64,000 nt of DNA from Candidatus Parcubacteria bacterium (GCA_023142215.1 JAGLJW010000022.1:3315-67314), one strand, 5' to 3'; counted from the first letter of the stretch, positions 40,398-61,200 are shown. Program-made: numbers and translations. The notes: a model not told the origin generated them from the letters alone.

Positions 40398-41615
40398 TTA
40401 AAAAATATTTATATCTAAATACTGATTAGGAATCATACACATGTCACTAAAAACTAAAGGCAAAATACTATCATCATGTTTTTCAAAATAGAAAGAATTC
40501 GGTGGAGACTGTTTTTTTTTAATACTGTTTAAACCTATCATGTACAAAACACTTTTTTCCCACGCTAAATCAGTACTTAAACTAATCTTATTATTCATGT
40601 TTACAATGTAACGATCGCTTCTATCAAGTTGACCCTCATGTTTTAAAAATTCCAAAAAAGAAAAGACTAAAAACACCCTTATGTCAAATTTACTTCTTTT
40701 TTCATCATCAAAATTATTAAACGCCAAATTAGCATTCCTTATTACATGTTTTATATCTCTAATAGTTAAATGATATTTTTTAGCAACATATTGCAATATA
40801 AAATTAATATGCTTACACCAATTTGAATCTTTTTGTTGACAAAAAAATGATTCATCAAATAGTTGTTCAATAAAATTAATAAAATCAACATCATTCAAAG
40901 TCAATATTTTTGAAAAATCTAATACTTTTCTATATGAGGCACTGGCATTTTCATTAATATAATTATCTTTTGCTATTGGAATAATTGCATGAACAATTCT
41001 ACCTTCAAAATTATTTTCTGATAAAAAATATTTTAAAGTTTCCAAAAAGAAAATTCCTTTGTCACCTGACCTATCAATATCCTCAACTATAAAATATATT
41101 TTCTTATATTTTTTATCAATTTCATTTATTAAATATTTAAATATTTCTTGTACTTCGAAAACTCTTTTTGCTGGAGATTTTTTAAATATATAAACAAATT
41201 TATCGACGACATTTATTCCCTCCAAATTATCAGATATTCCAGAAAGTACATCTGTGGCTAAATCAAATATTTTTGATTTTATTTCTTTACCATCAATTTT
41301 TTTCACAATAGCTTTATGCTTTCCAAATTTTTGAGCCACTTCCAAAATAAATCCTTCCCATAACTCATTCCTTTCAGGAAATTTCCAAGCATCAAAATTA
41401 ATCCAAAGTTCATCGGCTTTTGCCTTATTTGCAATATTATCAAGCAAAGTACTTTTACCACAACCGAAATCACCTATCAATCCAAAAATGCTATTTCTAT
41501 CAACATTATCAATCTTTTCTTTAAGATCTATACGAGCAACCGAAAAATCTAACAAATCATTAACCTTGTATGTCTCTTCTAATAAATCTAAATTTTTTAT
41601 AAAACCATTCTGCAT
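40398..41615 (-). CDS. KAP-family P-loop NTPase (no transmembrane insert)
   Basis: Walker A GLIGDFGCGKSTLLDNI, then the KAP-typical INFDAWKFPERNELWEGFILEV, then Walker B IYFIVEDIDR. Confidence 0.75.
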   Translation of the reverse strand: MQNGFIKNLDLLEETYKVNDLLDFSVARIDLKEKIDNVDRNSIFGLIGDFGCGKSTLLDNIANKAKADELWINFDAWKFPERNELWEGFILEVAQKFGKHKAIVKKIDGKEIKSKIFDLATDVLSGISDNLEGINVVDKFVYIFKKSPAKRVFEVQEIFKYLINEIDKKYKKIYFIVEDIDRSGDKGIFFLETLKYFLSENNFEGRIVHAIIPIAKDNYINENASASYRKVLDFSKILTLNDVDFINFIEQLFDESFFCQQKDSNWCKHINFILQYVAKKYHLTIRDIKHVIRNANLAFNNFDDEKRSKFDIRVFLVFSFLEFLKHEGQLDRSDRYIVNMNNKISLSTDLAWEKSVLYMIGLNSIKKKQSPPNSFYFEKHDDSILPLVFSDMCMIPNQYLDINIF

Positions 41616-41628
41616 TTTTTCACTTTTA

Positions 41629-41650
41629 GTGTATTATACAAGTATAACAC
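41629..41650 (-). promoter_or_regulatory. Candidate promoter/operator of the KAP operon
   Basis: The minus strand reads GTGTTATACTTGTATAATACAC. This is a TATAAT -10 (plus-strand 41633-38) embedded in an imperfect palindrome (GTGTTATAC / GTATAA-ACAC), 17 nt upstream of the ATG at 41615. Confidence 0.35.
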
Positions 41651-41720
41651 TTGCTGATCTTGCAGAATCTCTGTAAGAACTAGGCAAATTTTTTTTGCTT
41701 AATTTTATAAACAATCAACT

Positions 41721-42176
41721 TTAATCATTTTTCTCCTCAACAATCTCCAACCTTTCAATCCCATGCTCATCCAATTCTTCCCAATACTTTTCAAGAAAGG
41801 GGTGATCTTTTTCTATTCTTTCCTTAATATCCATTTTTTCAATTTCTTTACAACTATAAGCTCTATAAAAATCACGCATAGCTAAACGACTAGCAAGTTC
41901 TTCCGAAAGAGTGTCGTTATCATAATAATCAATAAAATCCATAACATCACCCTCTTCTAATTCAAGTGAAGGATAAATTTCTTTACCATCCTCATCAACA
42001 TATTTTTCCATTCCAAATTTTTTAGCAAAAGAAAAAATATATTTTTCTAAATCTTTATATTCTTTTATTTGCTCATCTCCTTTTGCATCAGACCTCACAC
42101 CATTAACTACCCAATTGCCAATATATGACATTTTTATTAAAACTTCAAATTGTTTTTTTGTAAAATTAATTTTCAT
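41721..42176 (-). CDS. Hypothetical acidic protein
   Basis: 151-aa ORF lying 5 nt downstream of dinD. No motif recognised. Confidence 0.5.
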   Translation of the reverse strand: MKINFTKKQFEVLIKMSYIGNWVVNGVRSDAKGDEQIKEYKDLEKYIFSFAKKFGMEKYVDEDGKEIYPSLELEEGDVMDFIDYYDNDTLSEELASRLAMRDFYRAYSCKEIEKMDIKERIEKDHPFLEKYWEELDEHGIERLEIVEEKND

Positions 42177-42181
42177 ATTTT

Positions 42182-43024
42182 TTATTTCTTAATCTTCTTA
42201 TCACTCTTTAAACTTTTCTTCTCCTCACTTTTGAGTTTTCTTTCAACCTTCTTCACATCTTCATTTGGAAATAAATCTTCCGGAACAATATCACGAGAAA
42301 TTAAAGTTTTTCTTACTGTTTTATTATTTATAATATGCTCTTTTGAAATCTCACTCTCAGTCTCTATCTCTTTGTTCTTGACATTAAAAATAGTAATCTC
42401 TGTTGCAAAATCTTTTGCTTTAAGCAAAATTGTAGGCATAAAATCAGCTAAAGGTTTATTATTCTTAATATCCCATCTACCCTTCATCTGTCTAGTTGTC
42501 TTGTTAAATAAAGCCTTATCACCCTTACTACGAATAATTGCAAAATTTTCATTCCCACTAGTCTGCTCAAAAATAACTTGAGAAAGTTCTTTCTCTGTCT
42601 CTGCTAACTTATATCTTGATTGAACCCTCTCAACTTCCAACAATCTCTGCTCTATAATTTCCGCTTTTCTAGTTTGAACTGCAAAATAAGTTTGAGCAAA
42701 AGCAATTTCTTCTTTCTTACTATCTCCATTTTGTGCAATCAAATAACAGGCATATCTTGAAAGCATTAAATCATCTATATCTTTTTGTGCAGTCTTAGGC
42801 ATTTCTATCGTTTTGTTAACGTCAACAAAATGATCAGATATAGTTTGTTTAGATATCTCACATGCTACTTTAGCTTTATTTACAACTTTCAAAAAGTTTC
42901 TCCATTCTGTATAGCCCAATAAATATTGTAAATCTCTTGCTAACCAAAATTCAACACCATCATCAGTTTTATGCGCAAAAGATTCAAAGTTTCCTGTTAA
43001 TGATTGTATAAATTTTCTTTCCAT
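42182..43024 (-). CDS. dinD: DNA-damage-inducible protein D homolog
   Basis: FWLARDLQYLLGYTEWRNFLKVVNKAKVACE resembles E. coli DinD (WSARQLGKLLGYSEYRHFIPVLTRAKEACE, as I recall it). Confidence 0.7.
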   Translation of the reverse strand: MERKFIQSLTGNFESFAHKTDDGVEFWLARDLQYLLGYTEWRNFLKVVNKAKVACEISKQTISDHFVDVNKTIEMPKTAQKDIDDLMLSRYACYLIAQNGDSKKEEIAFAQTYFAVQTRKAEIIEQRLLEVERVQSRYKLAETEKELSQVIFEQTSGNENFAIIRSKGDKALFNKTTRQMKGRWDIKNNKPLADFMPTILLKAKDFATEITIFNVKNKEIETESEISKEHIINNKTVRKTLISRDIVPEDLFPNEDVKKVERKLKSEEKKSLKSDKKIKK

Positions 43025-43118
43025 TATATCTAAAATTAATTTACATTGCTTTTATTACCATTAGTATATATTAATAACTGAATAATTACAATAAAATGCG
43101 TTAATCCACCTAATAAAA

Positions 43119-43157
43119 GGATTGTCGCCCAATAATTAAGCAAGTATAAATAAATTT
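43119..43157 (-). repeat. Diverged family-B motif, copy D
   Basis: The plus strand reads GGATTGTCGCCCAATAATTAAGCAAGTATAAATAAATTT. It shares TGTCGCC.AA and ATAAAT..ATTT with copies A-C. It lies about 95 nt upstream of dinD in the same orientation. Confidence 0.3.
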
Positions 43158-43183
43158 AATTAAAAACATAAACATAATCAACT

Positions 43184-43209
43184 AAAAAACTCCCTTTCGG
43201 AAGTTTTTT
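43184..43209 (-). terminator. Intrinsic terminator after the tRNA-Ser pair
   Basis: The minus strand reads AAAAAA-CTTCC-GAAA-GGGAG-TTTTTT: a 5-bp stem with one G-U pair, a GAAA tetraloop and a U-tract. Confidence 0.55.
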
Positions 43210-43215
43210 AATATG

Positions 43216-43302
43216 CGGAGAGAGAGGGATTCGAACCCTCGAGGAGCGTTAACCCCTACATCCTTAGCAGGGATGCGCTTTCAACCACTCAGCCATCTCT
43301 CC
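43216..43302 (-). tRNA. tRNA-Ser (anticodon GCU)
   Basis: Hand-folded. Acceptor GGAGAGA/TCTCTCC, anticodon stem CATCC/GGATG with loop CTGCTAA, long variable arm, T-arm GAGGG-TTCGAAT-CCCTC. Confidence 0.9.
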
Positions 43303-43324
43303 AATGGTTAAATTTATATCAATG

Positions 43325-43411
43325 CGGAGAGAGTGGGATTCGAACCCACGGTAGGCTTACACCCACAACGGTTTTCAAGACCGTCGCCTTCAACCGCTCA
43401 GCCATCTCTCC
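43325..43411 (-). tRNA. tRNA-Ser (anticodon UGA)
   Basis: Hand-folded. Acceptor GGAGAGA/TCTCTCC, anticodon stem ACGGT/ACCGT with loop CTTGAAA, long variable arm, T-arm GTGGG-TTCGAAT-CCCAC. Confidence 0.9.
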
Positions 43412-44098: not shown

Positions 44099-44170
44099 GT
44101 TCCCATAGTTTAATGGATAAAACACAAGATTGCGGATCTTGTAATCTAGGTTCGATTCCTAGTGGGGACA
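44099..44170 (+). tRNA. tRNA-Arg (anticodon GCG)
   Basis: Hand-folded, 72 nt. Acceptor GTTCCCA/TGGGGAC, D-stem GTTT/AAAC, anticodon stem CAAGA/TCTTG with loop TTGCGGA, T-arm CTAGG-TTCGATT-CCTAG, discriminator A. Confidence 0.8.
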
Positions 44171-44174
44171 CAAT

Positions 44175-46471: not shown

Positions 46472-47815
46472 TTATAACAAATTTATAATATTGTCTAATT
46501 TTTTAATTTTATTCAACTTAATTTTTTTCGCGACTAAATCCATATCTGGCATAATGACTTGTTTAAAACCAAGTTTTGTAATTTCTGTTAATCTTTCTTT
46601 TATTTTTGCTACTCTTCTAACTTCACCGCCTAAACCAACTTCTCCAAAAACTACCGTATCAACACTCATACCTCTATTTAACATAGCCGAAGTAATAGCC
46701 ATACAAACTGCTAGATCTAATGCCGTATCATTTATCTTTGCACCACCGACAATATTTAATATTACATCTTGATTAATCAAATTTAACCCTACTCGTTTCG
46801 TAAGCACAGCAGTCAATACTTGCAAGCGATTTAAATCAAATCCAGAAGCTTTACGCTGAGGATAACCAAATACTGTTTTAGTTACCAAGGCCTGAACTTC
46901 AACTAAAAATGGTCTTGTGCCTTCCATGACGCAACTTGTAATTGAACCAGGTAAAATTTCATTTTTTTCTTCTAAAAATATTTGAGATGGATTTAATACT
47001 TCTTTAAATCCACTTGAAGTCATTTCAAAAATTCCCATTTCATTTACTGAACCAAAACGATTTTTTTTAGCTCTTAAATAACGATAATCGTGTGCTCTGT
47101 CGCTTTCAAGGTGAATTACAGTATCCACCATGTGTTCTAGAGTTTTTGGACCAGCAATTTGTCCGTCTTTTGTAATATGTCCAGCAAGAATTACAGAAAT
47201 ATCACCACTTTTTGCAAGCTCTAAAAATTTAGCCGTACAGGCTCTAATCTGATTAACACTTCCAATATCAGAAGGAGATTCTCCAGAATATATAGTTTGA
47301 ATTGAATCAATGATAACAAGCGACGGAGATTCTTTTTTTATTGCTGATATAATTTTTTCTGTATTAATTTCAGAAATAAAATTAATATTTTCTGTATTAC
47401 AATTGAGTCTAACCAAACGAGCTTTAACCTGTGCAGCAGATTCTTCACCGCTGATATATATAACGCCTTTTTCAGAAACAGCATCAGCAATTTGAGCTAA
47501 TATCGTTGATTTTCCTATTCCTGGTTCACCTGAAATTAAAATTAAAGAACCAGGAACAATTCCGCCACCAAAAACACGATCCACTTCTTCAATTCCTATT
47601 TTTATTCTTTTTAATTTTTGCGACTCAATATCACCTAAATTTATTACTTTAGCAGGAACAACAGAATCTAATTTCTTTTTCTCTTGTATCCTTTCATCAA
47701 TTACCTCTTCTTGCAATGTGCCCCAAGATCCACATTCTAAACAACGCCCACTCCATTTCTGGAACTGGGCATCGCATTTTGTACATATAAATAATTGTTT
47801 AACTTTTCTCTTCAT
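46472..47815 (-). CDS. radA: DNA repair/recombination protein RadA (Sms)
   Basis: Zn finger CTKCDAQF...CLECGSWG, Walker A GEPGIGKST, KNRFG motif and a Lon-protease-like C-terminal domain. Confidence 0.95.
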   Translation of the reverse strand: MKRKVKQLFICTKCDAQFQKWSGRCLECGSWGTLQEEVIDERIQEKKKLDSVVPAKVINLGDIESQKLKRIKIGIEEVDRVFGGGIVPGSLILISGEPGIGKSTILAQIADAVSEKGVIYISGEESAAQVKARLVRLNCNTENINFISEINTEKIISAIKKESPSLVIIDSIQTIYSGESPSDIGSVNQIRACTAKFLELAKSGDISVILAGHITKDGQIAGPKTLEHMVDTVIHLESDRAHDYRYLRAKKNRFGSVNEMGIFEMTSSGFKEVLNPSQIFLEEKNEILPGSITSCVMEGTRPFLVEVQALVTKTVFGYPQRKASGFDLNRLQVLTAVLTKRVGLNLINQDVILNIVGGAKINDTALDLAVCMAITSAMLNRGMSVDTVVFGEVGLGGEVRRVAKIKERLTEITKLGFKQVIMPDMDLVAKKIKLNKIKKLDNIINLL

Positions 47816-48563
47816 TCTGTTTTAATTCAATCTCAATAATTTTTTCTAAATCTTCAAAATTAATTGTTCCAAATATTTCCTGATCATTAACATAAACAAA
47901 AGGAATTCCAGTAATATCCAAAGCATTAGCCTCAAGTATATTATCTCGTATTCTTGTTCGTCCACGTTCTTCATCTAAACATTTTTCAAACTCAGATACA
48001 TCTAAATTTAATTGCTTAGCAAGCGATAAAAATATTCCCTTACTTAAACTATTATTATTTTCAAAAAGCAAGTCATGATACTCCCAAAACTTATCTTGAT
48101 CTTGAGCACATCTGCCAGCCAAACTCGCTCTATATTGTTCAGAAGTAATTTTACTATCTGGATAATCTTTCCAAATTATTCTAACATTATCTTTATATTT
48201 TTCAATAATTTTATTTAAAACTTTTTCTTGATCTCTACAATAATCACATTTAAAATCAGAAAAATAGACTATATTTACAACTGCTTCATAATTTCCAATA
48301 CTAGGATCTAAATTAGTAATAATAGGACCTCTTAACATATCTCTAAGTTGTGGATTTCTAGTTATGAAAGGATCTTGACGAAAATTTTCATTTAAATAAT
48401 AAGTACCATCTAAATTTTTCTCAACTTTTTGTACTTTATTAAAATAAATTATTTGATTTAAATTTAAAAAAACACCAGATAAAAATATAATAATAAAAGC
48501 CGAAATAGATGCAATTACAAAAATAGAGCTAGAAAATTTTTCTTTTTTAAAAAAATTATACAT
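47799..48563 (-). CDS. DsbA-family thiol:disulfide oxidoreductase, membrane-anchored, intact CDYC active site
   Basis: N-terminal TM, FSDFKCDYCRDQ (CXXC), and GIPFVYVND (cis-Pro loop region). Its last 17 nt overlap the radA start. Confidence 0.75.
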   Translation of the reverse strand: MYNFFKKEKFSSSIFVIASISAFIIIFLSGVFLNLNQIIYFNKVQKVEKNLDGTYYLNENFRQDPFITRNPQLRDMLRGPIITNLDPSIGNYEAVVNIVYFSDFKCDYCRDQEKVLNKIIEKYKDNVRIIWKDYPDSKITSEQYRASLAGRCAQDQDKFWEYHDLLFENNNSLSKGIFLSLAKQLNLDVSEFEKCLDEERGRTRIRDNILEANALDITGIPFVYVNDQEIFGTINFEDLEKIIEIELKQNEEKS

Positions 48564-48586
48564 AAAAATTATATATATTTAATAAT

Positions 48587-49216
48587 TTATTCATTTTTAT
48601 CTTTCCAATAAGCTTCATCAATTTTCCACATTTTTCCATCTTTAATCAAATTGATTAATATGCTTTGACTATAAGCCTTATCGGTATTATTTTTCGTAAC
48701 TAAAGCTTCTTTTCTTCTTGTGCTTATCAAAATACTAGCATAACCAATATTATCGTCAAATTTTCTTACATCAGTAGATATTGCTTTAGTAATTACGCCA
48801 TAATATACTGAAGTGTCAATATTTTTTGCTCTTTGTTCATCCACATAATTCCTTGCCCATTTCCTCATTCTATCACTCATAAAAGTTTCTAAACTTGTAA
48901 TATTATCATAATTTGCCTGATTAGAATAGCTTCCGAATCTTTCCGCAAAAGATATAGCAATTTGAACTACGTCTCTTTCACTCATTTCTTTCTTAATGGG
49001 CTTAATCACTTTTGGTTTTTGTACTTCTTTAGGTTTTGAATCACTTTCTATTATTCCTTTTTTTACTATTTTGTCCGCTTCAATAGGTTGTCTCGTATCT
49101 TCATGCCCAACTGGTTTTTTACTTAAAAAATAATAAATTAATCCTATAGCAATTATTAAAAAAATAAATGCTCCTGCTATTATGATTATACGTTGTCGTT
49201 GTTTTTGTTTATCCAT
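48587..49216 (-). CDS. Bitopic membrane protein; VirB8-like (NTF2-like) candidate by size, topology and position
   Basis: 209 aa with an N-terminal TM (IIIIAGAFIFLIIAIGLIYYFL) and an ectodomain of about 120 aa. It lies immediately downstream of VirB4. No sequence signature is claimed. Confidence 0.3.
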   Translation of the reverse strand: MDKQKQRQRIIIIAGAFIFLIIAIGLIYYFLSKKPVGHEDTRQPIEADKIVKKGIIESDSKPKEVQKPKVIKPIKKEMSERDVVQIAISFAERFGSYSNQANYDNITSLETFMSDRMRKWARNYVDEQRAKNIDTSVYYGVITKAISTDVRKFDDNIGYASILISTRRKEALVTKNNTDKAYSQSILINLIKDGKMWKIDEAYWKDKNE

Positions 49217-49253: not shown

Positions 49254-51176
49254 TTATATATCCATATCTTCAACACCCTCTAACGCCTTATCGTCACTAA
49301 TAGTTGCAGCAAATTCTTTTTTTGCTTCTTCAATAGCTAATAACTGTCTTGGATCAGATGTTATTAACTGATCTTCAGTGTATGAAGCAACCACTTTTAT
49401 GGCTGCATGTTTACTCCCTGCAAAAAATATTCCCTCTCCAACTCCACACTCAAGCAACAAATACTTTTCACCTTCTGTCAATAAGAATGTTTTTTGCACC
49501 AAATCAATTGAAGCTGAAGATTGTTTCAATAAAAGTTGTAAAGATGAATTTGTTACAATTGCCTGTCCGTATGGCGAAGTTAAAAAATCATTAACATCCT
49601 GAGTAATTGTAGTAACACCTAAGTAATATTTACGGCACCGTTTTACTAAAGCAAAAATAAATTTAGCACTGTCTTCGTGTTGCATCAACCACCAAGCTTC
49701 ATCAATTACCAAAATTCTCTTTCTCATCTCACTTCTAACAACATTCCAAATATAATTAACAATAGAATAAATTGCCAATGGTCTAAGCTCATCTTCTAAA
49801 TCTCGTACTGAAAAACAAACTAACTTATTATTCATTTCCACATTCGTTGGATTATTAAATAAACCAGCAAAAGTACCTTGTGTATATTTTAATAAACGTA
49901 AAGACAAACTCTCGCCGCCCTCCATTCCCTCTAAAATATCTTGAAAATCTTGCATAATAGGTGCTTCAATACTAGCTAAATCAACATCGGCAGTAATATC
50001 TTTTTTTGCATAAGTTTCCAATAAAGCTCTATCAATAATAGAATCTTCTTCGTGATTTAAATCACCAAGCATTAATCTTATTAAACCTTTCACTGTAATC
50101 ACAGCACTTCTAATAATATCAGCTGGCCTAGAATCGTCTCCAATTGAACGAGGCAAATCAAATGGATTAACCTTAGCATCAGAAGAAAGAGACAAATTGA
50201 TGTATGTTCCACCAACAGCGTCAGAAAGATGTTTATACTCATATTCAGGATCAATAATAATCACTTCTGTACCAGTCATTAATGCTCGTAAAATTTCTAA
50301 TTTTATGGCATAACTTTTACCAGCACCTGATGTTGCAAACACAACAGAATTGGCATTCTGTAAGCTGAATCTGTCAAACAAAATTAAACTATTATTATGT
50401 CTATTAATACCATACAAGACACCTGTATCAGAAGTTAATTCAGAAGAAATAAAGGGAAATGACGAAGCAACAGGAGAAGAATTCATATTTGAATTAATAA
50501 ATAATTCATCATTACAAAGAGGTAGCGTTGAATTAAATCCTTGTTCGGCTTGATAAAGTACTTTTCTTGAATAAACTAGACGAGAACCAAAAATATTTTC
50601 CACATCTATTGTTAAAATATCAAGATCTTCCTTTTTATTTGAATAAACTGTTACATATAAACCAAACTGGAAAAATCTTTCAATTCCCTGTGTTAAAGCA
50701 TCTCTCAAGGCTTCAATATCGCGAAGAGCTGTTTCGGATAATGGATCACGAGCAGCACCTTTCTCTGCATTTCCAATAATTTCAGCCTCAAGAGTACCAA
50801 CCTTTTTCTTCAACTGCTTTAACACAATCGCTGTCTTTATTGGATAAAAAAACATGGCAATATCAAAAGTTGTATTTAAATTAATAACTGGCGCAAACCA
50901 ACCAACACTAATATAACGCGGATATGTAATAACAAAAATTGTTCTAACAAAAACACCAGATAAAACAAGATGATCAGTGGAAATTTTCATGCTCGCGGGA
51001 GCAATCAAATCTTTTATCATCACTGTACCTCTACGATACATTTTCTCTTCTTCAATAAATCTCTTAGTTTCCCGTGCTGAAACATTAATAACTTTTTCTT
51101 GTTCAGCTTTTTTACTATTTTCTACTTTCTGTTTTAACTTATCTTCTTTTTTAATTTGACTCGGTTGAAATGCCAT
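49254..51176 (-). CDS. virB4: VirB4/TrbE/TcpF-type type IV secretion ATPase, C-terminal 640-aa part
   Basis: IAPASMKIS...RTIFVITYPRYISVGWFAPVINL, Walker A ATSGAGKSYAIK, and Walker B ILVIDEAWWLM. Confidence 0.8.
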   Translation of the reverse strand: MAFQPSQIKKEDKLKQKVENSKKAEQEKVINVSARETKRFIEEEKMYRRGTVMIKDLIAPASMKISTDHLVLSGVFVRTIFVITYPRYISVGWFAPVINLNTTFDIAMFFYPIKTAIVLKQLKKKVGTLEAEIIGNAEKGAARDPLSETALRDIEALRDALTQGIERFFQFGLYVTVYSNKKEDLDILTIDVENIFGSRLVYSRKVLYQAEQGFNSTLPLCNDELFINSNMNSSPVASSFPFISSELTSDTGVLYGINRHNNSLILFDRFSLQNANSVVFATSGAGKSYAIKLEILRALMTGTEVIIIDPEYEYKHLSDAVGGTYINLSLSSDAKVNPFDLPRSIGDDSRPADIIRSAVITVKGLIRLMLGDLNHEEDSIIDRALLETYAKKDITADVDLASIEAPIMQDFQDILEGMEGGESLSLRLLKYTQGTFAGLFNNPTNVEMNNKLVCFSVRDLEDELRPLAIYSIVNYIWNVVRSEMRKRILVIDEAWWLMQHEDSAKFIFALVKRCRKYYLGVTTITQDVNDFLTSPYGQAIVTNSSLQLLLKQSSASIDLVQKTFLLTEGEKYLLLECGVGEGIFFAGSKHAAIKVVASYTEDQLITSDPRQLLAIEEAKKEFAATISDDKALEGVEDMDI

Positions 51177-51179
51177 AAA

Positions 51180-51869
51180 TTATTTTACAACTTTTAATTG
51201 ATTAATATCAACTAATTTTTGATTCTTTGATGTTTCTGGATTATATGAATTATAATAAAGTTCAATTAAGCTCTGTGTGTCAAGTTGTACTGAATGTAAA
51301 CCGATAGAACCTAAACCATTTTGCACCCTAGTAACACGGGTCATCATCTTTACCTTTCTTTTCTTAAACTTTTTCTCTTTCATTCTAATTATAATAGCAG
51401 GTTTAAATAACTCTGAAAATCTATTTACAAATGATTTTTGATTATCAGTCAAAGGATTATATGGAATTGCCACATAAAATCTCTTGTTCATTATGCTACT
51501 TATTGAAACTAATTCATTAATATATTGAATGTATTCAGACGTTTGCATTTTTAACAATTCATTAGTTTGCTCTTTTTCTTTCTCTTCTAATTCTTTTAAA
51601 TATCTCTCAATATTCAATTCACGAGATTGAATCACAATCTGTATAGGAAATTCAACACTATTTAAAAAACCAACATAGGCAGAAATTGTTGCATTTTGTT
51701 CATCTTCATTTTTTAAAGAAAAATTTATACTAGAAACTAAAAGGATTGCCCTAAGTGTTCCATCACGCATGACAACAACGTCTTCTTTTATTTCAGAAAT
51801 ATCCAAAAACTGCTGAGTTGTTGTACTTATATGTTTTCTAGCTAATTTTTGCTTTTTGTCACTACTCAT
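51180..51869 (-). CDS. virB4: VirB4 N-terminal domain encoded as a separate 229-aa ORF, in frame with the ATPase part
   Basis: TTQQFLDISEIKEDVVVMRDGTLRAILLVSSINFSLKNEDEQNATISAYVGFLNSVEFPIQIVIQS fits the N-terminal pattern of Gram-positive VirB4 proteins (Orf16/TcpF/PrgJ-like). Its stop at 51182-51180 is followed by one codon (TTT) and then the ATG at 51176-51174, all in one frame. Confidence 0.55.
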   Translation of the reverse strand: MSSDKKQKLARKHISTTTQQFLDISEIKEDVVVMRDGTLRAILLVSSINFSLKNEDEQNATISAYVGFLNSVEFPIQIVIQSRELNIERYLKELEEKEKEQTNELLKMQTSEYIQYINELVSISSIMNKRFYVAIPYNPLTDNQKSFVNRFSELFKPAIIIRMKEKKFKKRKVKMMTRVTRVQNGLGSIGLHSVQLDTQSLIELYYNSYNPETSKNQKLVDINQLKVVK

Positions 51870-51914: not shown

Positions 51915-52394
51915 CTAAATTTTTTTATTATGTAAACTAATTTTAGTTTCGTCATCTTTTTCTCCTTTATATACACCTTGAGTGTCAACCATTAATGCCA
52001 ACTCATTTAATCTTGATGATGTACGTGTTCTATCATCATTAATAACCTCAACTTTAACATTTTCTATAGCATCACTATTTTCTACATTGTCTTTTCCGAA
52101 CGAATTATTCCATACTCTAGTTTTTGGACTTTTATTAGTTTGTATAAAATTTAATACAAAATAATGAAAAGGCATTTCATCAACTTTATAAAATGCAAAA
52201 ATAGCAGAAATAATTAATTCTGGAATTACAATAGCTAAAAAAGTTGAAAAATAAGTAAGTTTATATACTGCAGCAGCAAATAAAACAGCACCAATCATAA
52301 TTAAAAATTGTCTAGTCGTAATAGGCCCTAAAATTTTATCTTCAACATCAATAAATTGTGGTACTGTAAATTGTTGCATAATTATTTGACTCAC
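51915..52394 (-). CDS. PrgI-family (VirB3-like) small membrane protein
   Basis: QQFTVPQFIDVEDKILGPITTRQFLIMIGAVLFAAAVY matches the PrgI-family N-terminal pattern, followed by a second TM. Confidence 0.6.
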   Translation of the reverse strand: MSQIIMQQFTVPQFIDVEDKILGPITTRQFLIMIGAVLFAAAVYKLTYFSTFLAIVIPELIISAIFAFYKVDEMPFHYFVLNFIQTNKSPKTRVWNNSFGKDNVENSDAIENVKVEVINDDRTRTSSRLNELALMVDTQGVYKGEKDDETKISLHNKKI

Positions 52395-52436: not shown

Positions 52437-54095
52437 TTAAAAACGTAATTCCCTATTTAAATCCATTATAGCCCGAAATTCTTCTTTTGTTAAGACATCT
52501 TCACTATTTTTTTGCTTTTCATTAATAACAATATCAACCTCAACTTTTTTATTAATAGCCTCATTTCCTAGACCAATATACATCATGTTAATAGGGCTCT
52601 TCCGCCATGCCTTAATTCCAATTAATCTTTGTCCATAACCATCTCGCTCTAAAATACTAACTTTTTCTTTTATTTTTTGGGTGCATTTTCTAGTATCAAC
52701 TCCCAATCTCCTAAATATAACCAAATCCATTTCTTTAAGTTCATCAATTGGACCCATTAACTTTGGCACCTGCTTCACATCAGACACCTTTTTTGTATTA
52801 ATTGGAGAAACCTGTCTAACATTAATTACATTTTCTCTTGAAAATTCTTGATTTTTAACAAGTTGCTCTTCTTTTACACTTTGAATTCCTCCATCACTTT
52901 CTTCAACTTCTTTTTTATCTTCAATATTATTATCTACTTTATTTTTTTTCTCTGTTTGATCTACAACTTGATTATTTTTTTCAACTAACTTTTCTTTATT
53001 TCTTTCTAATTCTTTTAATTGACTTTGATTATTTTCTGTTTTATTTTTCAATTTAGTATAATCATATTCCACATCTCGATCCATGGAACTTAAAGCCTCT
53101 AATAAATCAACATCTTTCTTTTTGTTTATACTCCGACCATCATCTTCAATGATGGATGAATACTCTTTTAAATTGTTTTTTTTGTCAGAAATTATTTTTT
53201 TCGTAACTCTAACGCCATCAAGTTCATTTAAAATTAAATCAATTAATTGAGAATTAAAACTAAGACCTCCAAATTCTGGCGATTTTCCTAAAGACTCAAT
53301 AGTTGTAATTCTATTTCTCACCCCACGTAAATAAGTTCTTAAAATCTGTTCAAAACGAGTTTTAAGCTCACTTGAAGCAAAACTAATTTTTAGCTCACTA
53401 ATTACATTCTGTATTTTTTGTTCAACCTTATCTTTTAAATTACTTTTGTCTTTAATTACTTTAACTACTTCATGCTCAACACTATTATCTTTTCCAATAT
53501 CAATATCCAAATCCTTTACCAAATGTACTTCTTCATTGTTGCTAATAATTTTTTCAGAAATAACTTCTTCTTTAATATCGTTACTTTTCGGCAAAGGTGA
53601 TAAAATTTTATTTTTAAGCTCTTTACTATCCTGAGTTGGAACAGAATCAATTTTAGTAATTATTTTTGGTCTTACTAAAACTATTTTTTCTTTTTCAGTT
53701 TTTTCCGTATAATTAACATCTTTCTTTAAACTGTTTTTTAAAAATTCTGCCGCTAATGGTTCACTAGCATCTTTTTTTATTTCTAAATTATCATTGTAAT
53801 TTTCTTTTAACTCATCTCTTATACCTAAATATGATAAAACATCTTTAAATATCTTTTCTTTTAATTCAAGAAATAGCTTTTCAGCTCGCTCGTCACTCAA
53901 ATCATTCTCAAACATAAAATAACCTTTCAATTTACTAAAAGGTATATCTTTTATCATTACACGCATTATTATAATTGCCAAATTAACTTTATAACGTTTT
54001 TCAATATCATTCACAACAGCCATTGCTTTCTCATCTGAAACTTTGCCCCTAATTTCATCTGGCAATTTATTAAATTTTTGTAATATTACAAGCAT
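52437..54095 (-). CDS. Hypothetical K/E-rich protein; N-terminal ~90 aa paralogous to the 335-aa neighbour
   Basis: 552-aa ORF. The N-terminus KFNKLPDEIRGKVSDE...KRYKVNL...VLSYL parallels KFNELPAYVKLTVDSE...KKYKVNL...VLSCL in the ORF at 54217-55224. Confidence 0.55.
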   Translation of the reverse strand: MLVILQKFNKLPDEIRGKVSDEKAMAVVNDIEKRYKVNLAIIIMRVMIKDIPFSKLKGYFMFENDLSDERAEKLFLELKEKIFKDVLSYLGIRDELKENYNDNLEIKKDASEPLAAEFLKNSLKKDVNYTEKTEKEKIVLVRPKIITKIDSVPTQDSKELKNKILSPLPKSNDIKEEVISEKIISNNEEVHLVKDLDIDIGKDNSVEHEVVKVIKDKSNLKDKVEQKIQNVISELKISFASSELKTRFEQILRTYLRGVRNRITTIESLGKSPEFGGLSFNSQLIDLILNELDGVRVTKKIISDKKNNLKEYSSIIEDDGRSINKKKDVDLLEALSSMDRDVEYDYTKLKNKTENNQSQLKELERNKEKLVEKNNQVVDQTEKKNKVDNNIEDKKEVEESDGGIQSVKEEQLVKNQEFSRENVINVRQVSPINTKKVSDVKQVPKLMGPIDELKEMDLVIFRRLGVDTRKCTQKIKEKVSILERDGYGQRLIGIKAWRKSPINMMYIGLGNEAINKKVEVDIVINEKQKNSEDVLTKEEFRAIMDLNRELRF

Positions 54096-54115
54096 TTTTA
54101 TTGTTAATAATTATC

Positions 54116-54190
54116 AGGGGTTTGTCGGCAAACTACAGTTTTGGCATAAATTTTCAGATTTCGGTCATGCTGTAGTTTGGCAACAGACCC
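54116..54190 (-). repeat. Family-B motif, copy C: full 75-bp version with ~21-bp terminal inverted repeats
   Basis: GGGGTTTGTCGGCAAACTACAG ... CTGTAGTTTGGCAACAGACCC. The left half is near-identical to copy A. It lies about 21 nt upstream of the start at 54095. Confidence 0.6.
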
Positions 54191-54216
54191 ATCATGACCA
54201 TAATTCTATAATCAAA

Positions 54217-55224
54217 CTACGCTTCAGTTTCTTTCTTTTTTATCTCTTCAAAGATAGCTGAATATTCTAATGTGCCTGGTTTGTATTTTTTAAGCATTAT
54301 CTTAAGACCCTCAATCTCTTTTTTGTAAGTAATTTCTTCATTAATAACCTCAGATTCTAAAGTGCCTTGTTCATAATTTAATTTTTCTTTTTTAAGCTCA
54401 TTAATCTTTTTCTCTTCTTCAGATTTTACATTACTAAAAGTTATTGAATCGTTTGAGCCATATTCAACAGGAAAAATTTCCCAATCATCAACATTATCAG
54501 AAAGCATACTTTCTGGAAAAAATTTTATATTTCTATAAAGTAATAATAATTTTTTAAGCAAATCCTTTTCATCTTTATCTAACTTCTTCGCGTTTTCCGA
54601 TTCAGTCATATACTTCATTAAAACAATATTATCAAACATCACGGTTCCATTTTGCTTTATAAAATCTTTTAACCAATTTGAAACTGTTGGAGATTTTGGT
54701 TTTTCTTCTAAACTAAATTTTTTGTTTGTTAATCTTTCTTGATTTTGATATAGCTCTTTTTCGGCCTTGTTTACAAAACTTTGATCTTCAGTTAAAACCA
54801 AAAGAATCTGAAAATTTATTTCATCAAGAATTTCATTGGGATTATTAATTTCATTAATTAAATCTTTATTTAAAATACCTAATATAATATTTTTTATTTC
54901 TCCATTTTTTATTTCATTTTTTTCAGGATCTGGTAATAAAAATCTTAAACGCTTTTCAAGACATGATAAAACCGACTCTCTAAATTCATCTGCAATAATT
55001 TTTGCCTCTTCTGGCTCTTTTTCAAATTCATTGACTATATAATTCTCTATTCCGTCATAGTCCAACTCATTTGTAACAATAAAAAACAACAACACAAACA
55101 AATTTACTTTATATTTTTTGTTTAAAAAAGTTATTTTACTCTTTATTACCTCACTATCAACTGTTAACTTAACATAAGCAGGTAATTCATTAAACTTTTC
55201 AACTGTCCTTTCTATGTTTGTCAT
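54217..55224 (-). CDS. Hypothetical acidic protein; N-terminal domain paralogous to the 552-aa neighbour
   Basis: 335-aa ORF that starts 3 nt after the stop of the VirB6-like gene. Confidence 0.55.
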   Translation of the reverse strand: MTNIERTVEKFNELPAYVKLTVDSEVIKSKITFLNKKYKVNLFVLLFFIVTNELDYDGIENYIVNEFEKEPEEAKIIADEFRESVLSCLEKRLRFLLPDPEKNEIKNGEIKNIILGILNKDLINEINNPNEILDEINFQILLVLTEDQSFVNKAEKELYQNQERLTNKKFSLEEKPKSPTVSNWLKDFIKQNGTVMFDNIVLMKYMTESENAKKLDKDEKDLLKKLLLLYRNIKFFPESMLSDNVDDWEIFPVEYGSNDSITFSNVKSEEEKKINELKKEKLNYEQGTLESEVINEEITYKKEIEGLKIMLKKYKPGTLEYSAIFEEIKKKETEA

Positions 55225-55227
55225 ATT

Positions 55228-57645
55228 TTAGTTTTTAATTACTTTTGTTTTATAATTATCAATATGCTCTGCTGTATCTTCATTATGTGCTTTTAATTTA
55301 TTCAAAACATCTTTTACGGAATCCATTGCAGCCGTATTAATACCACCTAACTCTGCAGCAACTATTCCTTGTTTGTAACCAAGAACACTTTTCATTTCTT
55401 TTGTACTTAAATTTTCACCATTACTTTGCCTAGTGTGTAATGCGGACAATTCTTTCGTTAAATTCTTAACTGCTTTAACTGATTGCTCTGAACCGTTAGA
55501 CATTTCTTCAAACAATTTTTTCTGAGTCCCTGTCTGCCCCTCACTGCTATATGTCGCACTTTGCGAAAATAAAGCACCCTCGCCTCCTCTGGCAATAGAC
55601 TCTATTCGTTTTTCAACTATTTCATTTTCTTTATTTGCCTGTTTTTGAACATTCATCATCATTGAATTGACATGATATCCTTCAAACATACTACTTGGTT
55701 TCTTCATTCCTCCCAAATCTTCTCTATGCTTTTTCCTTGAATCTTCTTGGTCAAATAGAGAACTACGTTTAATTTCTCCTCTTTTTGCGTCTGTGTCATT
55801 TTTAATCTTTCCAACCTCTACATCTTTACCTGCCATAACATTAATATGAGATTCTAAATCAATATTAATATCTTCCATTTCTTTATTAAAATCTTTCAAA
55901 ATCTCATTTTTGGCCCATTCAAATTTCTCTGGCTCGGATTTATATTCTGTATTTGCATTATTTATTGCATTATCTCTTCTGTTCCCAGCTACTATCATAT
56001 TTTTACCAACTTCAGTCATTTTTGCTTGCATACTAGGCAATCTAGACAAATCATTATTTCTACTAAAATTAATTTTATCTATATCTTCTTTTTCTTTGCC
56101 TTTAATACTTTCAATCTTTTCATCTTTTAATTTTTTAGAATCATTAACATCGCTATCATATTCATTAACTTTTTTCTTATAATTAGAAGCTTTTTTTGCT
56201 CTATATATATTAAAAGCAGCTGCTCCGCCTAATGCTAAACCAGCCAAAGGATTTACAGCAGTTGCAACTGCTGCTGCACCAGCAACTTGTCCTGTATGTT
56301 TAAGTGTTTTGCCTGTTTTGCTATCAGCAAAATTCGCTGCAGCATCACGAATATTTTTACGTGTTTTATCACCCATACCAAGTTTCTGACCTACGGCACC
56401 CATGTTTGATCTAAGAGATTTAGCTCGTGCATCATGCACATCAGAACTCCAATTTCTCATAAGTTTACCTCTACTTGAATCTTTACTTGTTGCCATCACT
56501 CCAACTCCAAGTGCAGCAGATCCTGCCACCTGCCCACTTCTTTTTAATATCTGTCCAGGCATTTTTGAAAGTATTGTTTTCCCTTGCCCAATCGCACCAA
56601 GCCCTTTTCCTGCTACACCACCAACAGCTCCACCCATTTCTGAGGCAACTTTTAAACCTCCAACAAGCATTCCAATAGCAATTAAAAAAGGAATAAAACT
56701 TGTCTCACTCATCATAGCATGTTGACCAGCCTGAAGACCTGTGCTAGCATCTCCAACAATTTTTTTAGCTATGTCTTGCTTTGCAGTTTGTCCAATAATT
56801 AATGCTAACCATAAAAAGAATACCAATATCGGACCAATAACTACATTCTTTACAAACTCATCACTCCATTTGCTAAAATATTTTTGACCGCCCGGAAAGC
56901 CATAAAGCATAAAAGCCAATGGTGACAAAACAACATAAATCCAAAGCATTACTATTCTAAAAATTAAAGTAACCAAAATAACTAAAAGGACAACTGCTCC
57001 TATAGCTACAAATATCAAAGACACTATCAAACCACCAGTAACCTCCCAAAATTTGACGGCCTCCGCGGAAAAACCTTTTGTCTTTATCATTTCTATATAC
57101 TTATCAACACCTAAAGACTGAATAAATGAAGCTCCTGTACTTCCGATTGGATCTGCAAAAAAAACCATTAAGAACTGAGAAATATCAATTACAAAACCAC
57201 AAATTGACTTTGAATAATTAACTAAAAAAGCCATTAATATTAATTTGGGTAATGCTTTTTTAACAGTGTAACCTTCAATCCTAAGTATTGTTGAAAAAGC
57301 AATTATCACCATTGCTAATATGAAAAACATATTTGCAAAATTTAATATTTGAGTCCAGGCTAAAATAATACTTTTTTCTCCAATAAAATCATTATAGTTA
57401 ATTAACAAAATTATTGATTTTATAGCCAAAGTCAAAAACCAACCAAATACTATTAAGCCAAGCTGTGCTATATAAGCAAAAATTGTTAATACACCATTTT
57501 GTACAGTATTTATTATCTTGCTATCAGGCTCATCTGCCGCTTGAATACAAGAAATATCAATAAAAATATTGTAAAAAACAAAAACAAATAAAAAAACTAT
57601 TAATAGTATCTTTTTATTATTTATTTTTAAAAATATTTTTTTCAT
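55228..57645 (-). CDS. Polytopic membrane protein, VirB6/TrbL-like candidate, with a long hydrophilic C-terminal half
   Basis: 805 aa with a signal-like N-terminus (ILLIVFLFVFVFYNIFIDISCIQAADEP) and about 7-8 hydrophobic helices in the first ~400 aa, then a Gly/Ala-rich and K/E-rich coiled region. The call rests on topology and locus context. Confidence 0.45.
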   Translation of the reverse strand: MKKIFLKINNKKILLIVFLFVFVFYNIFIDISCIQAADEPDSKIINTVQNGVLTIFAYIAQLGLIVFGWFLTLAIKSIILLINYNDFIGEKSIILAWTQILNFANMFFILAMVIIAFSTILRIEGYTVKKALPKLILMAFLVNYSKSICGFVIDISQFLMVFFADPIGSTGASFIQSLGVDKYIEMIKTKGFSAEAVKFWEVTGGLIVSLIFVAIGAVVLLVILVTLIFRIVMLWIYVVLSPLAFMLYGFPGGQKYFSKWSDEFVKNVVIGPILVFFLWLALIIGQTAKQDIAKKIVGDASTGLQAGQHAMMSETSFIPFLIAIGMLVGGLKVASEMGGAVGGVAGKGLGAIGQGKTILSKMPGQILKRSGQVAGSAALGVGVMATSKDSSRGKLMRNWSSDVHDARAKSLRSNMGAVGQKLGMGDKTRKNIRDAAANFADSKTGKTLKHTGQVAGAAAVATAVNPLAGLALGGAAAFNIYRAKKASNYKKKVNEYDSDVNDSKKLKDEKIESIKGKEKEDIDKINFSRNNDLSRLPSMQAKMTEVGKNMIVAGNRRDNAINNANTEYKSEPEKFEWAKNEILKDFNKEMEDINIDLESHINVMAGKDVEVGKIKNDTDAKRGEIKRSSLFDQEDSRKKHREDLGGMKKPSSMFEGYHVNSMMMNVQKQANKENEIVEKRIESIARGGEGALFSQSATYSSEGQTGTQKKLFEEMSNGSEQSVKAVKNLTKELSALHTRQSNGENLSTKEMKSVLGYKQGIVAAELGGINTAAMDSVKDVLNKLKAHNEDTAEHIDNYKTKVIKN

Positions 57646-58285: not shown

Positions 58286-61200
58286 TTAATTTTCTGCAAC
58301 AATAATATAAACATCAGACTCTACATAACTATCTTCACAAATATCAGTTACTACTGGACAATGATCATCCATTCCACAAATACCACCATAAACACCAGCT
58401 AGATTACGACATTGTTTTCTTGGTAAGCATGGTCTTGTATTAATACCTTCGCTACACCAACCCCAATTATCCATTATTTTTACTTTTGGCTTAACAATAC
58501 AATAATTCAATGTAGGAGCCACTGGTAATGTTATGGTTGATGCACCACCAAAATTAGGTGCTACCATATTTCCAGCATCAGCACAATAAATAATGTTCTC
58601 CTCTAAGGTACCCTGATCTACAGAATGTTGTGATTTTAAATCCCAATAACTATATAAATGATAAAAAGAGTGCGGATTGTTAGCATTAGATCTATCACGC
58701 ATTTCAACGCCTGTTACAACAGTTCTATTGCTATCTCCCCAGTCAACAGAATATAATATTAAAGGCAACTGTTGACTATTAACAATACTATTAAATGTAA
58801 GATTCACAAAACCATTTTTATGTAAAGTAGTGTTCACATTTAATCCATTTAATTTAATATTTCTTATTTCTGGTGGATAAGCACAATATTCAATTGGAGA
58901 CAACTCTCTAGTGGAACTAGCACATACATTAATCGGAGGAGACCATTCAGGCACAGACGAATCAGGTAAATATCTTAATGTATTTGACACACAATCACCA
59001 CCACCTGGAGCACAATAATTATCTCCTGGCGTTAAACTACTATCACATAAAATGTCAACATTGGTCCCTGTGGCACATTTAGCTAATACGTTAGGAATAC
59101 AATTCCCGCCAGGACAACAAGCCATATTAATATCAGCGGGACATCCCCAACCATTGATTGACGTTCCTACACCATTAGTATCAAAACATCCGAGACAGTC
59201 ACCAACACACTCTGCACCAATTAATTCCCCAGCATCACAATAATTACCAGCTGGTATTACACATGTACTGTCAGGACATTGCGGAGCACAACCTCCCTGC
59301 ATAATATCTCCATTATTAGTACCACCAATACATTCGTAAGTCTGATTCCATGTCCAATGACCGTAGCTTTGTGCAAAAAGTTTTTTCAAGGCACTTTCAG
59401 CTTCAATGGTAGTTGTATATGGATTTACTTGATAAACATTAACAAATTCCTGCGGAATTTTACAATCACCAGTTGTTCCAATACAAGCATAAGGGCTTCC
59501 TGCTCTCGCTTTAAGAGCAGGAAGATCAACAACTAATGGCTGAAATCCTGGAAGATTTTCATTACTATCCCATTCATGTGGATTAGAAACTACACTCCAA
59601 TAATCTTGAGATTTATAGTCAACTGGAGGAACAATAGAGCCAAACGGATTATAATCTGTAGAATAAGTATAATTAAGAAAAGGCACCATATAATCACTTC
59701 CTTTATAAACTCGCCCACTCCAAAATTTATTTTTCCCCGTTGAGGTTACTAGCTGTACAATTTTATCACAATAATCATCTCTGGCATAAATTTGAACTCT
59801 GCCACCAGGACACATACAATATCCATTAGAATTTACAAATTTAATACTAGTTAAATAATCATCATTATTAAAATAAAAAGTACCTGTTATATTACCAACT
59901 GTTACTGGTATAGCAGGATCATCTCCTGGATCATTAAAAGTCCAATTACCGCTACCATGCTTCCCACAATGATTTTTATGTGCACAATGAGTATATTCCA
60001 TAAAAATATTAACACTATGCAATTTCCATCTCTTTATATACTCCTCTGGTTTTAAGTCAAAAATTACACTTACCACCTTACTATTCACAAAAACTCTATT
60101 AACCATTAACTGAGATCGACCTATAGCAAGTTGACAATAATAAACAGGAAATCTGTCTAAATATCCAGCCCCTTCTTCAATCCCTTCTCCTTTTACCTTA
60201 TCAATAGGATACCAAAGTAAACATGTATCTTTATCTCCTGGATATTTGTCATATTCTAAACAATAACCATGCCAACCTTTTTTCATAATACCTGAGTCTT
60301 CATAATAATTACAAGAAAGTGCATTACCTTCAGGATAAAGACGACAAGATTGTTCAACATATTCTTCGAAAACACTTGTACTTATTTTTTTTGTAGCTAA
60401 AACAGGACGTATTTTCATATCATCAATATAAACATTTCCAACACACGAATCACCTCTCGCCTCAATAGGAAAAATACCACCACCACCAAAAGTACAACCC
60501 CAAGCGGTAGTATCTAAATTAGTAACTCCACGAGACGCACATGTAGCATTTGGAGAAAATGCCCTGTTTAATGGATCAGTACAATTCGGATCCGGACCAG
60601 CAACTTTTTGGCAACACTGTGCAGAAAGATAAATTTTACCATAGCCTGTTATTTTAATCTTCTTTGTATTACCACCAACGATAAACTTAATTTGTTCTTC
60701 AGTCCAGTCAAGCCCTCCTTGGAAATTAATACCACATCCATTATACCAAGTTTGTTTTTGTTCATCACCATTCTGATTTACACATTGAATTAAATCAACA
60801 CCTGAACCAGGATGTGCACTACTTCCAACTGGCGTACCAGTAGCACTAAAAGTTGAAATGAGCAGTGAAAGAACTAAAGTATCAACACCATCTCCTTTTT
60901 TAAAATTTAAAGTATTTGCTTTAACTGAAAGGGTATATTCTGCACCTGGTTCAACATCTATGAATTCAGAAACAATATCGCCCTCTGCTGGAGAATACTT
61001 TAGAAAAGATTCCCCCGAAACAGGATAATCAATACCTTCAACCTGAGCAGAATATGGATTATTAATTACTGAAAATTTATTTTCATTCCAACCTTGCTGT
61101 GCTGATAGCCAACCAACAGGATAAAAATCTGCACCATACAATTCAAAATTTCCATTTGATATCATCGCAATTTCACCAAGTTGTTCCATGTTTCCTAAGG

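Follow-up and report, generated by a model that had tools for sequence, protein, structure and literature searches.

An ordinary stop codon separates predicted trsD-like and short virB4 genes in a putative chromosomal T4SS cluster of Candidatus Parcubacteria

Introduction

Does a single in-frame TAA codon interrupt the virB4 gene of a Candidatus Parcubacteria bacterium, or does it end one gene directly before the next one begins? The question is raised by a stretch of DNA of 64,000 nucleotides (GCA_023142215.1 JAGLJW010000022.1:3315-67314; hereafter the window, with positions counted from its first nucleotide), in which an ORF of 229 aa (51180..51869) and an ORF of 640 aa (49254..51176) share one frame on the minus strand. 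An earlier interpretation made without database searches, here called the sequence-only reading, had treated the two ORFs as a single virB4 gene interrupted by a stop codon, and had offered four explanations: a recent nonsense mutation in a decaying system, a functional split with tightly coupled re-initiation, programmed stop read-through, and an assembly or sequencing error.

Recently, the distribution of T4SS genes across Patescibacteria was surveyed by Quiñonero-Coronel et al. (2025; PMC12102498). In that survey, homologues of VirB4, TrsD, PrgI/VirB3 and VirB6 are widespread in the group, and TrsD, described as a remote homologue of the N-terminal portion of VirB4, usually adjoins VirB4. 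TrsD is presented there as the most abundant T4SS component in Patescibacteria: of 2272 homologues, 1664 were associated with VirB4. Among the genes listed as essential is the one for the TrsD of Ca. Southlakia epibionticum ML1. For the homology between TrsD and VirB4 the survey cites Guglielmini et al. (2014; PMC4027160), in the main text of which the word TrsD is absent; the homology statement is therefore attributed here to PMC12102498 alone. Since the adjacency of TrsD and VirB4 is reported in PMC12102498, the feature has already been described; in the available part of the text, neither the junction geometry nor a description as a "split VirB4" was found.

The two ORFs are very probably separate, functional genes of a Patescibacteria (CPR) chromosomal T4SS, the first encoding a TrsD-like protein of 229 aa and the second a short VirB4/TrsE-type ATPase of 640 aa. 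The evidence for this explanation is set out below, together with that bearing on its alternatives.

The junction and its sequence context

On the minus strand, positions 51190-51171 read GTT GTA AAA TAA TTT ATG GCA. Within this sequence, the TAA that ends the trsD-like gene occupies 51182-51180, the TTT at 51177..51179 forms a 3-nt intergenic spacer (6 nt in the closest relative), and the ATG that begins virB4 occupies 51176-51174. The TAA is an ordinary stop codon, and the ATG 3 nt downstream is an ordinary virB4 start. Among the 50 long ORFs of the window, 36 terminate with TAA, which is therefore the usual stop codon of this genome and has not been reassigned. Furthermore, the arrangement occurs a second time in the window, at 55222-55230, where TAA, one codon (AAT) and ATG stand between unrelated ORFs of 805 and 335 aa. 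The geometry of the junction is no more than would be expected by chance.

The two encoded proteins

The 640-aa ORF (49254..51176, minus strand) is complete and has its own ATG. In the Pfam search it matched P-loop_TraG at 6.4e-27 (94.7 bits against a cutoff of 25.8), with additional matches to AAA_10 and DUF87, and its score against NCBIfam NF045971, the CD1110-family VirB4-like ATPase, was 348.6 bits, above the cutoff of 325. Both a Walker A motif (SGAGKS) and a Walker B motif (LVIDEAW) are present. In comparisons with solved structures, residues 247-606 were similar to the VirB4 C-terminal domain 4AG5 (5.2e-47), and residues 275-580 to residues 445-740 of TrwK (about 3e-07). The first ~45 residues are K/E-rich and variable among relatives. 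By its P-loop/Walker motifs as well as by the curated cutoffs, the product is a VirB4/TraC-type T4SS ATPase, and the gene can be designated virB4 or trsE-like, the latter on the basis of its similarity to TrsE of plasmid pGO1.

The 229-aa ORF (51180..51869, minus strand) was characterized through sequence profiles, hhalign, Foldseek and precomputed annotation. The protein aligned with positions 90-284 of the 894 positions of NCBIfam VirB4_plasma (1.8e-10) and with positions 8-143 of the 201 positions of NCBIfam NF041427 (TrsD/TraD), in the latter case with 26.6 bits (E 4.5e-06), which does not reach the family cutoff of 200. The protein is a remote TrsD homologue outside the narrow staphylococcal NF041427 subfamily. 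In the broader usage of PMC12102498, a TrsD-like protein is one of about 200-230 aa that has remote homology to the N-terminal portion of VirB4 and is encoded directly upstream of a VirB4-like ATPase gene, and the 229-aa protein fits this definition. Precomputed annotation assigns PF26593 (TraC-like) to an identical protein and to all of its best 120 homologues. A Pfam scan of the ORF gave no significant match even at E up to 10, the local copy of Pfam apparently being one without PF26593, and a literature search on PF26593 found nothing. In addition, the proteins of two relatives match PF11130 (TraC_F_IV) below its cutoff.

When an alignment profile of the N-terminal half was compared with PDB sequences, the matches were at chance level alone, and VirB4 was found by fold comparison only. 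The 229-aa protein was modelled with AlphaFold2 at moderate confidence, the mean pLDDT being 64.5 and values in the tail (residues 213-229) lying below 50. In a Foldseek search of the PDB with this model, each of the 14 best matches was a TrwK/VirB4 chain from the R388 system, at probabilities of 0.97-1.00; the matches are moderate (E about 1e-3 to 4e-2, query-normalised TM-score 0.36-0.44) and are reported by chain rather than by aligned region of TrwK. In homology, the protein corresponds to the N-proximal part of VirB4 proteins made as one chain, and the 640-aa ORF is its complement. Its present label, "hypothetical protein", could be replaced by TrsD-like or VirB4 N-terminal-domain-like protein.

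Up to this point the sequence-only reading holds well. Its description of the junction (TAA, TTT and ATG in the same frame) and of the ORF sizes was accurate when re-read on the minus strand. Its view of the 640-aa ORF as the remainder of VirB4, including Walker A and B, agrees with Pfam, NCBIfam and the motifs, and its likening of the 229-aa ORF to the N-terminal domain of Gram-positive VirB4 proteins agrees with the VirB4_plasma match, the Foldseek matches to TrwK/VirB4 and the collinearity with a Bacillus mycoides protein described below.

Gene neighbourhood

Directly upstream of the trsD-like gene lies a PrgI-family (VirB3-like) gene (51915..52394, minus strand), which was recognized by Pfam PrgI (5.1e-12) and by synteny, so that the order in the window is PrgI-family/VirB3-like, TrsD-like, VirB4. 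Two further genes of the cluster, of 552 aa and 335 aa (52437..55224, minus strand), have no Pfam or NCBIfam match, and genes of 552 aa and 320 aa take the same positions in the closest relative. The 805-aa ORF (55228..57645, minus strand) encodes a candidate VirB6/TrbL-like membrane protein; it matches Pfam TrbL weakly, short of the cutoff (0.0012), and the closest relative's orthologue likewise matches TrbL_3 weakly. Downstream of virB4, a 209-aa ORF and a gene for a DsbA-like thioredoxin-fold protein (47799..49216, minus strand) are kept beside virB4 in the closest relative, where the whole cluster is syntenic. The T4SS genes adjoining the pair are intact. Housekeeping neighbours of the cluster comprise RadA, DsbA, RecG, UDG and tRNAs.

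With predicted VirB4, TrsD, PrgI/VirB3 and VirB6-like products in a chromosomal context, the cluster has the composition expected of a Patescibacteria-type chromosomal T4SS. Its gene set and order are those given for such systems in PMC12102498, with no substantive difference. The genes of the window are packed tightly.

Conservation of the split in related genomes

A database search with the 229-aa protein gave 6433 homologues. Each of the best 120 is a stand-alone protein (224-243 aa, 64-79% identity), and they originate from MAGs of Parcubacteria, Falkowbacteria and other Patescibacteria. For a comparison at the level of the locus, 80 related Patescibacteria loci were retrieved and both halves were mapped onto each of them. 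Two separate ORFs, split at a homologous position, were found in all 80, with constant adjacency and order. The N-terminal ORF, which varies in length from 221 to 257 aa, ends at a homologous ...QLRVxE* in every locus, and the separate C-terminal ORF, of 620-652 aa where complete, starts with a conserved M-F-N/E-P-x-Q or, more broadly, M-F/A-x-P-x-Q. Both ORFs are complete in 59 of the loci. When the two halves were joined into an 869-aa query, the best 120 matches contained no fused protein; all were of 613-663 aa and covered at most 74% of the query. Since a search with the joined halves would rank a fused relative first and none was returned, no close relative is fused.

The division is ancient, being common to all close relatives examined and to conjugative plasmids of monoderms such as pGO1. 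The sequence-only reading, which had taken VirB4 for one interrupted gene, had proposed an alignment of orthologues and had named consistently separate proteins in relatives as the outcome that would speak against it. The relatives proved not to be contiguous: all 80 encode two proteins, with variable spacers and in three frames.

Comparison with known split and fused systems

The closest parallel to this arrangement in a described plasmid is offered by pGO1 of Staphylococcus aureus (MPF_FATA class), in which a gene in the VirB3 position is followed by trsD (227 aa), a 14-nt spacer and a gene for a 672-aa DUF87 protein, TrsE; the order in the window is the same. TrsD of pGO1 matched the N-half profile with an hhalign probability of 83% (E 8.7e-6), and TrsE aligned with the 640-aa protein nearly end to end (residues 22-595 against 7-617, 5e-44). 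Taken together, the TrsD match and the near end-to-end alignment of TrsE indicate that the split point is the same in pGO1. The similarity between the proteins of pGO1 and those of the window is remote, at about 25-26% identity. TrsD and TrsE of pGO1 are the equivalents of TraD and TraE of pSK41. pGO1 encodes relaxases and is conjugative, whereas the window locus stands among chromosomal housekeeping genes (RadA, RecG, UDG, tRNAs). Plasmids of Pontibacillus and Geobacillus also carry a split pair, which in Geobacillus pGspE55-1 directly follows a PrgI-family gene, in the order seen in the window. The TrsD/VirB4 pair is thus an ordinary arrangement that is already known from pGO1-type plasmids and, since 2025, from Patescibacteria (PMC12102498).

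Single-chain VirB4 proteins differ from the window and its relatives in that the N-proximal module is joined covalently, as in B. mycoides, the Mbov_0397 family and TrwK, instead of being a separate polypeptide. On the VirB4 of Mollicutes ICEs (NCBIfam VirB4_plasma, 894 positions; Mbov_0397 family), the N-half covers positions 90-284 and the C-half positions 256-892. On a fused 831-aa DUF87 VirB4 from a Bacillus mycoides plasmid, residues 17-154 of the N-half correspond to 26-170 (5e-13, 28% identity) and residues 54-611 of the C-half to 243-818 (1e-68). For TrwK of R388, the picture is one of a C-terminal ATPase domain that matches solved VirB4 structures and a moderate similarity of the N-half model to TrwK. 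By these alignments, the pair in the window is collinear with the fused VirB4 of some other monoderm plasmids, with almost no overlap between the halves. The two proteins are divided within a charged, probably flexible linker of low conservation, the tail of the N-half having low pLDDT and the start of the C-half being K/E-rich.

This collinearity supports a testable idea, namely that the TrsD-like protein is the N-proximal module of VirB4 acting in trans. Given the collinear homology and the synteny, it would supply as a separate polypeptide what fused VirB4 proteins carry in cis. VirB3 is known to anchor VirB4, as summarised in PMC12102498. The N-proximal module probably helps to attach the ATPase hexamer to PrgI, the VirB3-like protein encoded just upstream, and hence to the membrane translocon.

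Alternatively, the TrsD-like protein could be an independent accessory factor of the T4SS, perhaps a regulator or an assembly chaperone, that shares only ancestry with the VirB4 N-terminus. PMC12102498 assigns no function to TrsD and places the TrsD homologues of Gracilibacteria mostly away from virB4, and the protein resembles VirB4 N-termini only remotely (28% identity, or similarity at the profile level), all of which would suit such a role. Against it stand the complementarity of the halves, their collinearity with fused proteins almost free of overlap, and an adjacency and order that are the same in all 80 loci, in pGO1 and in the Pontibacillus and Geobacillus plasmids. An independent factor is accordingly considered unlikely.

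Spacing, reading frame and translation

Under the preferred explanation of two separate genes, translation of virB4 would begin in one of two ways: ribosomes would initiate there independently, with no Shine-Dalgarno sequence, as is usual in this genome, or those that terminate 3 nt upstream would re-initiate. A Shine-Dalgarno-like motif was found at just 2 of the 50 long ORFs of the window, and the virB4 start has an A/T-rich context like those of other window ORFs, which makes independent initiation of this kind plausible. Among the 80 loci, the spacer between the two ORFs has a median of about 20 nt and extends from an overlap of a few bases to +192 nt. With spacers of such length in relatives, re-initiation may take place here and is not a conserved requirement. 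The N-terminal ORF ends with TAA, TAG or TGA, and the frame relations 0, 1 and 2 occur in 32, 23 and 25 loci, respectively, a distribution that does not differ significantly from uniform (chi-square ~1.7, 2 df). Because the spacers vary and all three frames occur in relatives, the in-frame layout of the window is incidental. The relatives as a group have kept neither tight coupling nor a common frame. Of the functional split with tightly coupled re-initiation that had been proposed, the split itself stands, as an ancient one like that of pGO1 TrsD/TrsE, and the conserved tight coupling does not, given spacers of up to 192 nt.

The closest relative, whose N-half and C-half are 79% and 86% identical to those of the window, has TAA at the same codon, followed in frame by a 6-nt spacer (TAA TTT TTT ATG). 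It is conceivable, and quite improbable, that the in-frame spacing of 3-6 nt in these two genomes lets their sub-lineage use re-initiation or rare read-through, whether to hold TrsD and VirB4 at a 1:1 stoichiometry or to yield a minor fused isoform, and that, more broadly, TrsD is a detachable N-terminal module of VirB4, the separate expression of which would let the cell control how the ATPase docks at the PrgI/VirB3 translocon.

A programmed read-through or a reassignment of the stop, giving a fused VirB4 of 871 aa as a regular product, is highly improbable. A recoding site should retain its in-frame relation and the context of its stop, and by the division of frames (32/23/25) and the use of all three stop codons among the loci this junction is not such a site. 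The in-frame layout shared by the window and its closest relative, and the nominal lead of frame 0 (32 of 80), are what read-through would predict; yet frame 0 is not significantly enriched, the ORFs are out of frame in 48 of the 80 loci and many spacers are long. Furthermore, read-through is contradicted by the frequency of TAA as a stop in the window (36 of 50 long ORFs), by the same TAA, codon and ATG between unrelated genes at 55222-55230, and by the lack of a fused protein among the best 120 matches to the joined query.

Selection on the two genes

If a recent nonsense mutation had truncated a virB4 of 870 aa and the system were decaying, uninterrupted orthologues and relaxed selection would be expected. 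The former are missing among close relatives: the split is present at the homologous position in all 80 loci and in the best 120 matches to either half, the ORFs of 48 loci lie in different frames, and the C-terminal ORF has its own conserved start (M-F/A-x-P-x-Q). As for selection, a comparison of both halves, which had been suggested at the outset, was made with the closest relative, and pN and pS are given instead of a dN/dS ratio because synonymous sites are saturated at this distance. The value of pN was 0.13 for the N-half and 0.09 for the C-half, with pS at ~0.8. Low pN beside saturated pS indicates that both genes are under strong purifying selection, and the adjoining T4SS genes are intact. 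The pair is not a pseudogene. Although the ORFs are in frame with just TAA TTT between them, and fused VirB4 proteins of about 830-890 aa are known from other monoderm elements, the conserved split and the selection on both genes leave a recent mutation hardly credible. In annotation, the pair should be flagged neither as a pseudogene nor as a recoding site.

A false stop introduced by sequencing or assembly is likewise hardly credible, as the N-terminal ORF of every relative ends at the same position, the closest relative, sequenced in independent runs, also carries TAA at this codon, and proteins identical to the 229-aa and 640-aa products are each found on two contigs in the database.

Gene boundaries and start contexts in the window

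The in-frame junction between the trsD-like gene and virB4 has a counterpart of identical geometry elsewhere in the window. At 55222-55230, on the minus strand, a TAA stop is again followed by one sense codon (AAT) and then an ATG in the same frame, and the genes that flank it, an 805-aa VirB6/TrbL-like ORF and a 335-aa ORF, are unrelated to each other. Since the same geometry recurs at this second site, a boundary consisting of TAA, one codon and ATG is a routine type in this compact genome. Start contexts were surveyed across the whole window in the 50 ORFs that reach 150 aa or more. A Shine-Dalgarno-like motif precedes only two of these, A/T-rich contexts being found in its place. The minus strand holds 46 of these 50 ORFs, GC skew is strongly negative over most of the window, and the G+C content lies at 26-34%.

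The gene pair in other genomes

Both forms of VirB4 are present among plasmids of Bacillota, namely a fused protein (831 aa) and a split arrangement composed of a TrsD-like protein and an ATPase of 620-670 aa. The fused form is carried by the Bacillus mycoides plasmid NZ_CP036106 (L083), which was compared with three further plasmid loci (L081, L082 and L084).

Among the relatives, short tandem repeats were observed in the trsD-virB4 intergenic spacer, directly after the trsD-like stop, at L056, L027, L050, L010, L012, L019, L040 and L053. The repeat unit is CGCATAA, in many copies, at L056, while L027 carries TCGTATT-like units and L050 TTAGTTAA-like units.

Many contigs bearing the Patescibacteria-type pair (L010-L012, L017, L026 and others) are titled 'uncultured Gammaproteobacteria bacterium' in public records, and one (L057) is titled 'Nanoarchaeota archaeon'. 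Such titles seem to stem from mislabelling or mis-binning.

Other features of the window

At the head of the type IV secretion cluster, a 1877-aa ORF (58286-63919, minus strand) returned no match in a Pfam search; it could encode a large surface protein or one associated with type IV secretion. Elsewhere, a gene for a KAP-family P-loop NTPase lies at 40398-41615 and one for a BRO-N domain protein at 42182-43024, next to two tRNA-Ser genes (43215-43302 and 43324-43411), followed by tRNA-Arg (44099-44171) and recG. The region 40398-43411 may be a small islet, mobile or concerned with defence, at a tRNA site.
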